Part shown: positions 3,402 through 61,444 of the stretch, piece by piece
Position numbering within the stretch: position 1 is the stretch's first letter
How the letters are laid out: every line of letters starts with the position of its first letter
DNA from: Bacteroidota bacterium
Lineage (GTDB): Bacteria; Bacteroidota; Ignavibacteria; SZUA-365
Assembly (NCBI GenBank): GCA_003246455.1
Contig: QKAF01000079.1
Coordinates: 399 to 64,398, forward strand
Reading direction: 5' to 3'
DNA length: 64,000 nt
Made by a program: the position numbers and the translations under genes
Notes under the pieces: model-generated
Database searches by the model: none
Seen by the model: only the letters and a program-made list of their open reading frames with translations
Told to the model about the DNA's origin: nothing

Positions 3402-4493
3402 ATGAAGAATCTCAAGATCACAAAAGCCGAACAGTCCCGCATGAGCGGTATCGATTACAGCAATCTCGGCTTCGGAAAATTTTTCTCCGACCACATGTTC
3501 GTCGTCGATTATGCCGACGGCGCCTGGGGCGACCCGCGTATCGAGCCGTACGGCGCAATGGACATCGAACCCGCGAACTGCACCCTGCATTACGGACAGA
3601 CGATTTTCGAGGGCATGAAGGCATACCGTTCGGCAAAGGGCGGCGTGAACCTCTTCCGCCCCTATATGAATGCGAAACGCATGAATAATTCCGCGGTGGC
3701 CGTGTGTATTCCGACCATCGACGAAGAGATTTTTGTCGACGGCATCCGCGAACTGATCGCGATCGATCACGAGTTCATTCCGAAGGAACGCGGCCATTCC
3801 CTCTATCTCCGGCCGTTCGCGTTCGGGACGGGGAATTTCCTCGGCGTTCAGGCATCGTCGAAATACCGGTTCATGGTGATTACCTCCCCGGTCGCCTCGT
3901 ACTATGCCGAAGGACTCAACCCGGTGCGCATCAAGGTCGACGAGGAGCATATCCGCGCCGTGCGCGGCGGACTCGGCCAGGCGAAAACCGCGGCCAACTA
4001 CGCCGCTAGCCTCTACGCCGGCATGCAGGCGAAGAAAGAGGGCTTCGCGCAGGTGCTCTTCCTCGAAGCGGTCACCCGCAACTTCGTCGATGAGATCGGC
4101 GCGATGAATATCATGTTCGTCATCAACAACGAACTGATCACGCCGCCGCTCACCCAGGGCTCGATCCTGCCGGGCATCACACGCGATTCGGTCCTCCAGC
4201 TCGGACGCGACTGGGGCATGAACGTTTCCGAGCGTTCCATCGGCGTCGACGAAATTCTGGAAGCCCATCGCGCGGGAACACTCACCGAGGCGTTCGGAAC
4301 CGGTACCGCCGCCGTCATCTCCCCCGTGGGAGAATTCGTGTACCGTGGCGAATCCCTGGTCATCAACGACCGGAAGATCGGCCCCCTCGCTCAGAAATTC
4401 TACGATACGCTCACCGGCATCCAGTACGGGGAACTCGACGATCCGAACGGCTGGATCGAGAACATCAAAATCGAAGAGGCAGTGAACGCCTGA
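3402..4493 (+). CDS. ilvE: Branched-chain amino acid aminotransferase
   Basis: LHYGQTIFEGMKAY, LYLRP, AKTAANYA (PLP Lys), ILPGITRDS, GTGTAAVISPVG. Confidence 0.95.
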   Translation: MKNLKITKAEQSRMSGIDYSNLGFGKFFSDHMFVVDYADGAWGDPRIEPYGAMDIEPANCTLHYGQTIFEGMKAYRSAKGGVNLFRPYMNAKRMNNSAVAVCIPTIDEEIFVDGIRELIAIDHEFIPKERGHSLYLRPFAFGTGNFLGVQASSKYRFMVITSPVASYYAEGLNPVRIKVDEEHIRAVRGGLGQAKTAANYAASLYAGMQAKKEGFAQVLFLEAVTRNFVDEIGAMNIMFVINNELITPPLTQGSILPGITRDSVLQLGRDWGMNVSERSIGVDEILEAHRAGTLTEAFGTGTAAVISPVGEFVYRGESLVINDRKIGPLAQKFYDTLTGIQYGELDDPNGWIENIKIEEAVNA

Positions 4494-56163: not shown

Positions 56164-57225
56164 ATGGAAAGCAAGGAATTGCGGCTGACGAACGTATTTC
56201 TCGGGATAATTGTCGTTTTTGCGGCGGGAATGCTGCTTTACGAACTTCAGGCAGTGATTCTGCCGTTCATCCTCGCGATTTTTCTCTCCTATATATTCAA
56301 GCCGTTCGTCCTGCTGCTCAAGCGAAAAAAAATTCCGTCCCCGCTGGCCCTGCTGCTCGTGTTCATCGTGATTTCCGGATTGTTTTTCGGACTTTCCTCG
56401 ATTATCTATTCCAGTTTCGAGGCGTTTGTACGCGAAGCACCGAAGTACCAGGACAAATTATCTCTGATTCTTCGGGAGTTCACGCTGCAGGTCGATCAGA
56501 TCGCCGCGCGTTTCGACATCAAACCCGAAAGCGTCGGACTGACGGATCTGATCGATATTTCCGCGCTGACATCCGCCGTGACCTCCGGCGCCGGTTCGGT
56601 CTTTTCCGGCCTGGGCAACGTCTTCCTCATTCTCCTGCTGATGTTCTTCATCCTTGCAGGGAGCGGCGATCTGGTTGCGAAGGTCCGCGTCGCCATGGTG
56701 GAACGCCATTCGCAGACGCTCTCGACCATGCTCGAAAGCATCGATCAGCGCGTGCGGCAGTACCTGATCGCAAAGACCCTGATCAGCCTTGCGACGGGAG
56801 CACTGACAACGGTGATCCTGCTGATCTTCGGGGTGGACTTCGCCCTGCTCTGGGGCTTCCTGACTTTTCTGCTGAATTTCATTCCGAATATCGGCTCCAT
56901 CGTCGCCATCGTCTTTCCGATCACGATTTCTTTCCTGCAGTTCGATTCCGTCACGACGCCCCTCGTCGTGCTCGCCCTGCTCATCGTGACGCAGATGCTG
57001 ATGGGCAACGTGATCGAACCGAAGATCATGGAATTCAGCCTCAATCTCAGTCCTCTCCTGGTCCTGGTCGCGTTGATATTCTGGGGGTGGCTCTGGGGTA
57101 TCTGGGGAATGATTCTCGCGGTCCCGATGATGTCCATCCTGAAGATCGTTTTCGAGAACGTCGAAGCGCTGAAGCCCATCAGCGTGCTCATGAGTGGTAC
57201 CGTTCCCGTTCGATCCGGGGAGTGA
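56164..57225 (+). CDS. AI-2E family transporter
   Basis: FIPNIGS, GNVIEPK, LSPL, WGWLWGIWGMILAVP. Start MESKE. Confidence 0.92.
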   Translation: MESKELRLTNVFLGIIVVFAAGMLLYELQAVILPFILAIFLSYIFKPFVLLLKRKKIPSPLALLLVFIVISGLFFGLSSIIYSSFEAFVREAPKYQDKLSLILREFTLQVDQIAARFDIKPESVGLTDLIDISALTSAVTSGAGSVFSGLGNVFLILLLMFFILAGSGDLVAKVRVAMVERHSQTLSTMLESIDQRVRQYLIAKTLISLATGALTTVILLIFGVDFALLWGFLTFLLNFIPNIGSIVAIVFPITISFLQFDSVTTPLVVLALLIVTQMLMGNVIEPKIMEFSLNLSPLLVLVALIFWGWLWGIWGMILAVPMMSILKIVFENVEALKPISVLMSGTVPVRSGE

Positions 57226-57327
57226 TCCGTGGTTACTCTTCCCGGCGCTTCCCTGTAATGAATAATCCCCCGACGGGGCAGGCCCGCCGGGGGAGGCTGT
57301 TCACTCTTCCAGGGATGATTCAGGAGC

Positions 57328-57768
57328 TTAGTTGATGGAGATCTGACGCGGTTTGACTTCCTCGGATTTCGGAACGGTGACGACGAGCACGCCGTCTTTG
57401 TATGACGCGGAGATCTTTTCCGCATCGACCTGCGTCGGGAAGGTGAAGCTGCGGTAGAACTTGCCGCTGACCCGTTCGACACGGTGGCAGGTCGCATCCT
57501 TCTTCTCTTCCATCGACTGGCGCTCGCCGCTGATCTTCAGCGTGTTGTCCGTGAAGTTCATTTTGATCTCTTCCCGCTTCATTCCCGGGATGTCGAAACT
57601 CAGTTCATACTTGTCCGTGTCCTCGGTGATGTCTGCCATCGGGCTCCAGACGGCGGATTCGTAATCCTCATCGCGCTCGCGGCGCGCCGGCATACCGTTG
57701 AAAAAACGGTTCATTTCGCGCTGCAGATTCATCATCTCGTTGACGGGGTTCCAGCGTACGACTGTCAT
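57328..57768 (-). CDS. Hsp20/alpha-crystallin small heat-shock protein
   Basis: DIPG, LKISGER, ER..G.FYRSF, ASYKDGVL.V.VPK. AGGAGG SD. Confidence 0.95.
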   Translation of the reverse strand: MTVVRWNPVNEMMNLQREMNRFFNGMPARRERDEDYESAVWSPMADITEDTDKYELSFDIPGMKREEIKMNFTDNTLKISGERQSMEEKKDATCHRVERVSGKFYRSFTFPTQVDAEKISASYKDGVLVVTVPKSEEVKPRQISIN

Positions 57769-57834
57769 GGTATCATACCTCCTAAGTGGGTTGGATCGTT
57801 GAAACGTTTTTTTGCTCGTTCACCCGTTGTATAT

Positions 57835-57849
57835 TCAACTGCTGTGCCA
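57835..57849 (-). promoter_or_regulatory. Sigma54-like -24/-12 promoter for hsp20
   Basis: On - strand TGGCACA-GCAG-TTGA. Confidence 0.55.
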
Positions 57850-57882
57850 AACGTGTAAACCGGCAGCATCGTCAGTAAAAGC

Positions 57883-57989
57883 CGCCAAAATGTCAGCATA
57901 AATGTCGCATCATGCTGTAAAGGTGTCAGCGACCTGTCAAAACGGCACCTTGTGCGGACAATATGGCATCTACGTCTGTCACGTTGGCA
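57883..57989. promoter_or_regulatory. Array of five TGNCA-N3-TGNCA-like palindromes (candidate activator sites)
   Basis: Copies start at 57883, 57916, 57935, 57956, 57977. Confidence 0.65.
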
Positions 57990-58012
57990 CATAATAACGT
58001 TCCAGAACGGTC

Positions 58013-58028
58013 TGGTACGATGATTGCA
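58013..58028 (+). promoter_or_regulatory. Sigma54-like -24/-12 promoter for dnaJ-clpB
   Basis: TGGTACG-ATGA-TTGCA versus consensus TGGCACG-N4-TTGC. Confidence 0.65.
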
Positions 58029-58041
58029 CTCATTCAGGATT

Positions 58042-58812
58042 ATGATGAACCAGAAGAACTACTACGAAATACTGCATGTCGCGGAAACCGCCAGCGAGGA
58101 GGAAATCAAAAAGGCGTATCGGAAGCTGGCGAAGGAGTCGCATCCTGATCGGCATCCCGACGATGCGGCAGCCGAAGAGAAATTCAAGGAAATCGGCGAA
58201 GCGTACGATGTGCTGAAGGATCCCGACAAGCGGCGAAAGTATGACGAGCTTCGCCGGTACGGCGCCGGACAGGCGCACGGCAATATGTCGTACGAGGATT
58301 TCATCAATCGCTTCGGCGGGTATCAGGAGAGGGGCAGCGGCCAGGAAGAGTTCACCTGGGGCTTCGGCGGCGGTCTCGACGACATCTTTTCACAGCTGTT
58401 CGGCGGGTCGGGCAGCCGGTCGCGCGGCGGCTCGCAGCGTTCCCGGGGTTTTCATTTCGACTTCGGCGGCGGGGGATCACACTCCGAACCCCTCCGGCCT
58501 GAGACGACGCACGATCCGTTTTTCAAGCGCAAGGGCAGCGATGCCTATGTCGATATCCCCATCAACCTCGCGCAGGCGCTTCTCGGTTCGACGATACGCG
58601 TACGCACGCCGCAGGGAAAGAAAGTCAATGTGAAAATCGCCGCGGGAACGCAGCCCGAGGCGGTTCTGCGCGTGCGCGGGATGGGATTCGTCCATCAGGG
58701 GCATGCGGGCGATCTCTATATCCGCACGCACCTGACCATTCCCTCCGATCTGACGGAGGACCAGAAAAAGAAAGCCGCGGAACTGCTCGGGGAACTGGGC
58801 ATGCGGTACTAG
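58042..58812 (+). CDS. DnaJ-class co-chaperone (CbpA-like, no zinc finger)
   Basis: J-domain with HPD, G/F-rich linker with DIF, one C-terminal DnaJ_C subdomain. Confidence 0.9.
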
Positions 58813-58825
58813 GAGAAAGAAAAAC

Positions 58826-61427
<2,602 letters not shown>

Positions 61428-61444
<17 letters not shown>

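Follow-up and report, generated by a model that had tools for sequence, protein, structure and literature searches.

To our knowledge, Bacteroidota and their relatives have no RpoH, many of them also lack HrcA, and the switching of their heat-shock genes is poorly understood. Two arrangements known from Escherichia coli offer points of comparison for the locus reported here. The zraP/zraSR and hyc/hyp loci are divergent sigma-54 promoter pairs with common activator sites, and PspF is an enhancer-binding AAA+ activator (bEBP) that has no sensor domain and is held inactive by PspA. The present locus resembles the zraP/zraSR and hyc/hyp pairs in having one central block of sites between two outward sigma-54-type promoters, and differs from them in the predicted activator family, in the target genes and in the site motif.

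Sigma-54-type promoters of chaperone genes have been described within Bacteroidota. In Flavobacterium psychrophilum they were mapped before groESL, lon, dnaK, grpE-dnaJ, htpG and clpB, genes that form a co-expressed cluster for protein quality control (PMC9723704); the portions of that paper considered here leave the activator open among three bEBPs and name no enhancer motif. A promoter-matrix survey by COG found, for Bacteroidota and Planctomycetota, that predicted sigma-54 promoters are over-represented in chaperone and protease families, among them IbpA/Hsp20, DnaK, DnaJ, ClpB and Lon (PMC12316311). As far as its consulted sections go, the survey assigns neither an enhancer motif nor an activator, and it cites its reference 80 for the sigma-54 dependence of grpE and groES. 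PMC3162934, as far as consulted, gives nothing specific. Across the literature searched, that is, outside subscription journals and supplements, no enhancer motif or activator was named.

The locus described here shares with the F. psychrophilum SM4 promoters, from what is presumably the same phylum, the presence of -24/-12 elements before dnaK, lon and clpB. It differs in that groESL, grpE-dnaJ and htpG belong to the sigma-54 set there according to the parts of PMC9723704 considered, whereas in the present genome CIRCE is found at groESL and at hrcA-grpE-dnaJ, and htpG has neither element. The chaperone and protease families under predicted sigma-54 control are the same as those reported in the consulted sections of PMC12316311. 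An earlier note on this DNA had called the locus a candidate undescribed regulon, which in view of these two papers, as far as they were consulted, is too strong. The type of regulon has already been reported in the phylum, and what is added here is an enhancer motif, a split with HrcA/CIRCE and a candidate for the activator.

Layout of the hsp20/dnaJ-like spacer

The window, that is, the whole 64-kb stretch of DNA analysed, corresponds to positions 399-64398 of contig QKAF01000079.1 in the forward direction (G000:C132:399-64398). The locus comprises a gene for a 146-residue small heat-shock protein, hsp20 (57328..57768, minus strand; Pfam HSP20, 1.8e-28), and, divergent from it, a gene for a DnaJ-like co-chaperone with a J domain and a C-terminal domain (58045..58812, plus strand; Pfam DnaJ 4.4e-27, DnaJ_C 1.9e-19), for which an alternative ATG is possible at 58042. 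A zinc-finger domain was sought in the DnaJ-like protein and none was matched, and the protein falls under the NCBIfam cut-offs for both DnaJ and CbpA. The gene for the ClpB disaggregase (58826..61444, plus strand; Pfam AAA_2 1.2e-71, Clp_N and ClpB_D2-small) follows after a gap of 13 nt, so that the two genes probably belong to the same operon. On the other side, a terminator-like hairpin (57266..57294, minus strand) with a 12-pair stem, including 10 G-C pairs, is located 34 nt beyond the hsp20 stop codon, which suggests that hsp20 is a single-gene unit. The genome contains two HSP20 genes, of which this hsp20 is one. The spacer between hsp20 and the dnaJ-like gene is 276 bp long and has a G+C content of 46%, versus 60% for the genome.

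Two sigma-54-type boxes lie inside this spacer and point outwards. The box of the dnaJ-like-clpB unit is at 58013..58027 on the plus strand (TGGTACGATGATTGC; 58013..58028 when written as TGGTACGATGATTGCA), and the box of hsp20 is at 57849-57835 on the minus strand (TGGCACAGCAGTTGA). These positions, like those of the 13-mers discussed below, are as previously given, and all of them proved right when the sequence was read again. When both strands of the 64-kb window were searched for TGGYAYNNNNNTTGM (TGGYAY-N5-TTGM), just these two boxes were found; shuffled sequences gave a mean of 0.40 matches, with two or more matches in 7 of 100 shuffles. A sigma-54 promoter is characterized by a GG and a GC dinucleotide at a distance of 10 nt (TGGCAC-N5-TTGC). 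Both dinucleotides are present at that distance in the plus-strand box TGGTACGATGATTGC. The minus-strand hsp20 box has a GG and a TG with the correct spacing and an A in place of the expected C (TTGA, the textbook -12 element being TGC). The dnaJ-side box was among the best 15 of 60 matches when 434,523 nt of upstream regions, delimited by crude gene calls, were scanned with a weighted consensus. A looser -24/-12 regular expression applied genome-wide was uninformative and was set aside, as it gave 451 matches versus 625 in shuffled sequence.

Transcription is predicted to start at about 57823 (minus strand) for hsp20 and at about 58039 (plus strand) for dnaJ-like-clpB. On the dnaJ side, the -12 element comes to an end 14 nt ahead of the ATG (58027-58047). 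The mRNA would consequently have almost no leader, and the AGGA located just 5' of the start codon would be missing from it. A sigma-70-type promoter was sought across 57200-58300 and none was found. An RNA thermometer was also considered for the hsp20 leader and rejected: Rfam gave no match at E <0.3 in 57650-58150, and the predicted leader folds no better than shuffled sequences (z = 0.73). Metatranscriptome contigs from one run (X1) match the locus at 99% identity or more over 57337-57783, reaching from hsp20 into the first 15 nt of the leader. This level of identity indicates that the library contains RNA of the organism itself or of a strain very close to it. The contigs end 40 nt before the position at which hsp20 transcription is predicted to start, and cover hsp20 only, so they are uninformative on the spacer and on dnaJ-like-clpB.

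Conservation of the boxes and of the repeated motif

Orthologs of the DnaJ-like protein were found in relatives of the same order by genome search. A first search for related loci with this protein had returned mostly distant J-proteins of 30-45% identity and no usable orthologs; the closest named contigs in the DnaJ-like protein search carry Cytophagia and Chitinophagales labels. The set of orthologous intergenic regions comprises 27 of 30 loci, in which hsp20 is divergent and the start codons are separated by 260-567 bp. The three loci left out are L123 and L124, where hsp20 is about 1 kb off, and L129, which is a partial match. With the boxes scored as GG[CT]A[CT]-N5-nTG[ACT], the hsp20-side box is present in 27/27 regions, 70-116 nt 5' of the start codon, and the dnaJ-side box in 26/27. 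The -12 element on the hsp20 side reads TGA in 18 of the 27 regions, TGC in seven and TGT in two. The sequence flanking the boxes diverges freely among these relatives. Boxes that are kept while their flanks drift represent a phylogenetic footprint and not merely common ancestry.

The distance between the dnaJ-side box and its gene is variable. The box starts 29-44 nt from the ATG in the genus of the window and in one other genome, and 54-124 nt upstream in other genera, or else 318-323 nt upstream with a small ORF in between. This last arrangement was observed in L110, L111 and L117 (genus g11), at spacer positions of about 300-560. By eye, this intervening ORF has about 80 codons and looks hydrophobic.

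Between the two boxes, the earlier note had recognized five copies of a 13-bp dyad. Forty-eight sites from 26 relatives, without the present genome, were used to build a symmetrised weight matrix, and the extended motif is a 15-bp consensus, CTGnCA-WWW-TGnCAG. The letters reported for the five dyads are right in every case, and four of the copies fit the matrix, whereas the copy at 57916 scores under 6 bits. The strongest sites are site 1 (57882..57896, CCGCCAAAATGTCAG, 17.9 bits) and site 3 (57955..57969, CGGACAATATGGCAT, 16.4 bits). Site 3 is framed by two weaker sites, each 21 bp away: site 2 before it (57934..57948, CTGTCAAAACGGCAC, 9.8 bits) and site 4 after it (57976..57990, CTGTCACGTTGGCAC, 10.0 bits). 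The word dyad is acceptable, as the conserved positions of TGnCA-N3-TGnCA are self-complementary. A weak half-site that had been placed at 57862 likewise scores under 6 bits against the matrix.

The 21-bp spacing noticed in the window recurs among relatives, being exactly 21 bp in 19 of the 47 neighbour distances measured across the 27 orthologous regions. Among these 47 distances, 26 are of 19-22 bp and eight of 51-52 bp. Members of a pair are separated by two turns of the helix. In the 27 regions, 51 occurrences of the core G.CA...TG.C were counted versus 1.76 expected from shuffles, a ratio that overstates independence because the genomes are kin, and 9 of the 27 regions have no match to the core. 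A strict 13-mer, TG.CA...TG.CA, was too narrow, with 10 matches in the same regions. At 9 bits or more, two or more sites are present in 17/27 spacers and none in 8/27, although the boxes are kept; in these eight spacers TGTCAG/CTGACA half-sites are visible by eye. Measured from the predicted transcription starts, the sites are at distances of roughly 56-160 bp.

Predicted regulon members and the HrcA/CIRCE genes

The whole genome was scanned for a box accompanied by a motif of at least 8 bits located 15-260 nt upstream of it (5-250 nt on the minus strand), both being intergenic and ahead of a gene. The scan returned 10 rows, and the best four, with gene identities assigned by Pfam, are hsp20, dnaJ-like-clpB, hsp20b-dnaK (C63) and lon (C13). 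The motif sums of these four range from 24.7 to 54.1, and that of the fifth row is 11.8. The two additional boxes are at C63:5970 (hsp20b-dnaK) and C13:2839 (lon), and both HSP20 genes of the genome are therefore among the genes retrieved. The 15-bp motif picks out the regulon genome-wide. The expectation that the dyad would recur upstream of other chaperone genes was borne out, since at hsp20b-dnaK and at lon it accompanies a -24/-12 box, in this genome and also in relatives. For hsp20b-dnaK, the box lies 47-108 nt upstream in 24 of 30 related loci, and 28 of the 30 have a motif match. For lon, a motif match was found in 22 of 28 loci and a box in at least 10 of 28, two of these ten boxes being poor; the box count is a lower bound because the start codons are only estimated. 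Neither box nor motif was found within 350 nt upstream of htpG.

A sample of the phylum was examined through the upstream regions of dnaK. The box expression together with the matrix matched 4 of 26 regions of at most 330 nt, and five further regions (L270-L274) show by eye a TGGCAC-N5-TTTGT box with CTGACA/TGTCAG half-sites. Many of the dnaK genes in this sample have an hsp20 gene directly upstream, which places the promoter outside the stretch examined.

The absence of CIRCE noted previously holds for this locus and for the window, where none was found, and not for the genome, which encodes hrcA and contains exactly two CIRCE elements, one at groES and one at hrcA-grpE-dnaJ (search with up to three mismatches to a consensus taken from recall). 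Sigma-54 would therefore share the heat-shock genes of this organism with HrcA. The groES-groEL promoter region (C83:16310-16409) has a sigma-70-like promoter and a perfect CIRCE, not a sigma-54 box. In 30 relatives, the groESL CIRCE follows the strict pattern in 24 cases, and the other six are, by eye, near-copies with one or two changes. The two best motif matches of the genome (20.3 and 21.0 bits) are located just 5' of the groES promoter, about 20 bp upstream of its -35 element. They form an inverted pair 20 bp apart that is restricted to the genus of the window (7/7 genomes versus 0/23 others).

As for RpoH, the best match to TIGR02392 in the genome scores 162.8 bits, under the cut-off of 323.1. 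This match (C111:45891-46679) is a sigma-70-family protein of 263 aa (263-287 aa) with regions 1.2 to 4, and may be what we take to be the compact primary sigma factor of Bacteroidota, not a heat-shock sigma factor.

Candidate activators and alternative readings

The genome contains rpoN (192.9 bits) and 13 bEBPs (E of 8e-56 or better). A model in which two divergent sigma-54 promoters are served by one common enhancer thus survives the rpoN, bEBP and dyad-recurrence tests, as far as sequence analysis can carry it. The spacer is in all likelihood a bidirectional sigma-54 control region with a common phased enhancer, forming with hsp20b-dnaK and lon a proteostasis regulon that operates beside HrcA/CIRCE. 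RNA polymerase with sigma-54 would bind the -24/-12 box on each strand, and a single enhancer-binding AAA+ activator would occupy the four 15-bp sites as dimers. The activator would then assemble into a ring and open both promoters by ATP hydrolysis. In this organization the sigma-54 regulon would comprise hsp20, dnaJ-like-clpB, hsp20b-dnaK and lon, and HrcA/CIRCE would hold groESL and hrcA-grpE-dnaJ. We infer that the boxes fire and, from the gene set, that the signal is heat or unfolded protein.

Most of the 13 bEBPs have a receiver domain, nine being of the NtrC type, and two have no sensor domain at all. One of these two, of 339 aa (C125:17325-18871), adjoins a strong -24/-12 box, CGGCACGATAGTTGCG. 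Downstream of this box are a 97-aa gene that matched no family and a gene for a multihaem cytochrome carrying a T9SS sorting domain. The other is a 386-aa protein encoded in a miaB-(MBL)-bEBP-lptE cluster (C15:14043-15203), and the balance of the comparisons tips slightly towards this protein as the activator of the enhancer. It comprises a Sigma54_activat domain (residues 25-191), in which a GSFTGA loop is visible, and an HTH_8 domain (residues 344-384), with no N-terminal sensor domain. In this AAA+ then HTH_8 organization it resembles PspF, as it does in that putative binding sites overlap the promoter region of the cluster encoding it. It is not an ortholog of PspF, as it scores 276 bits against TIGR02974 for a cut-off of 443.55 and is named by no curated family, and its putative regulon consists of cytoplasmic chaperones and not of pspA. 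Conservation of the protein is concentrated in the AAA+ core, in the HTH and in a short LP...QAERE stretch that follows the lid, and its nearest Atlas clusters are mostly from Bacteroidota.

A full-length ortholog of the 386-aa protein is present in 39 of the 41 genomes of the class. In one of the remaining two, the ortholog is cut at a contig end, and in the other, a genome that is 74% complete, it was not found. The gene neighborhood is also conserved: lptE and a GT2 gene are located 3' in 30/30 loci, the MBL gene 5' in 19/30, and miaB upstream wherever the 1.5-kb flank reaches (11/30). In front of miaB (C15:18142-18210), two enhancer-type sites 54 bp apart flank a sigma-70-like promoter, one overlapping the -35 element and the other located 28 nt before the start codon. 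The leader site, which scores at least 15 bits and is located 22-28 nt before the miaB start, recurs in 14 of 19 usable relatives. Such an arrangement looks like that of an autoregulated operon, and the bEBP may damp its own expression through these sites; the leader site could also belong to another factor.

A further line of comparison comes from G045, a 1.8-Mb genome from another class of the phylum, in whose 180-contig assembly rpoN and one bEBP were found. That bEBP is 46% identical to the candidate over its full length, linker and HTH included. The hsp20-dnaK unit of G045 has a TGGCAC-N5-TTGA box with TGTCAG half-sites upstream, and as the sole bEBP found in this genome, the protein should by elimination drive that promoter. 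A point against this argument is that, of the 18 ORFs that follow box matches in G045, only one encodes a chaperone.

The same design could operate with the enhancer bound by a different bEBP, for example one of the nine receiver-domain activators of the NtrC type together with a heat- or envelope-sensing histidine kinase. HsfA/HsfB and lonD of Myxococcus xanthus provide a kinase-driven precedent. The number of bEBPs, most of them with a receiver domain and none adjoining a regulon gene, is consistent with this reading, and so is the indirect nature of the tie between the enhancer and the miaB-linked protein. We nevertheless consider it rather unlikely. The sensor-less protein, the only one checked for conservation, is retained throughout the class; no bEBP other than its counterpart was found in G045, where the sigma-54 box of hsp20-dnaK is preserved; and copies of the motif flank the promoter of the cluster that encodes it. 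The other sensor-less bEBP, in turn, adjoins a box and a multihaem cytochrome gene of its own.

Because the 386-aa candidate has no sensor domain, gating by titration can be proposed for it. Free DnaK with the DnaJ-like protein, or ClpB, would hold the bEBP inactive until unfolded proteins draw the chaperones away. If true, such a circuit would be a sigma-54 counterpart of DnaK-sigma-32 and PspA-PspF. In its broadest form, the proposal would make the miaB/lptE-linked bEBP the master activator of the unfolded-protein (heat-shock) response in Bacteroidota and related groups, acting through 21-bp phased dyad pairs, damping itself and gated by chaperone titration; this generalization is speculative, and we hold it to be doubtful. 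Should the candidate be confirmed as the activator, the sensing step of the stress response of a major phylum would be open to experiment, a step that is of interest because the candidate has no sensor domain.

It is also conceivable, and in our estimation unlikely, that the regulon is real and its trigger is not heat. Surface growth, osmotic stress or envelope stress might be the signal, and the chaperones would then be part of a broader 'cell exterior' programme, as the linkage of the candidate activator to lptE would suggest. The members argue against this, being without exception cytoplasmic quality-control proteins (two Hsp20, the DnaJ-like protein, ClpB, DnaK and Lon), and in every system known to us such sets answer to unfolded protein.

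Finally, it is very improbable that the -24/-12 elements are unused look-alikes and the dyads repressor operators on ordinary promoters, like HrcA at CIRCE: the non-canonical -12 element of the hsp20 box, the almost leaderless mRNA implied on the dnaJ side and the location of the motif over or just after a sigma-70-like promoter at miaB and beside one at groES could be read in this way, but no sigma-70-type promoter was found in the spacer, the GG and TG are kept at fixed spacing in 27/27 and 26/27 regions while their flanks drift, the dyads lie at 56-160 bp, which is an enhancer and not an operator distance, and the orthologous F. psychrophilum genes have mapped sigma-54 starts in the portions of PMC9723704 considered.

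Matches to the motif were also observed elsewhere in the genome. Strong single matches occur beside genes unrelated to the regulon, namely an NTP-transferase/PGM gene, a subtilase gene and a DUF5916 gene. At C113:3898-3974, a run of weak matches, clustered at 3898-3960, corresponds to a palindrome (GTCAAAAAGTCAA / TTGACTTTTTGAC) that follows a tRNA-like stretch and is probably a terminator unrelated to the enhancer.
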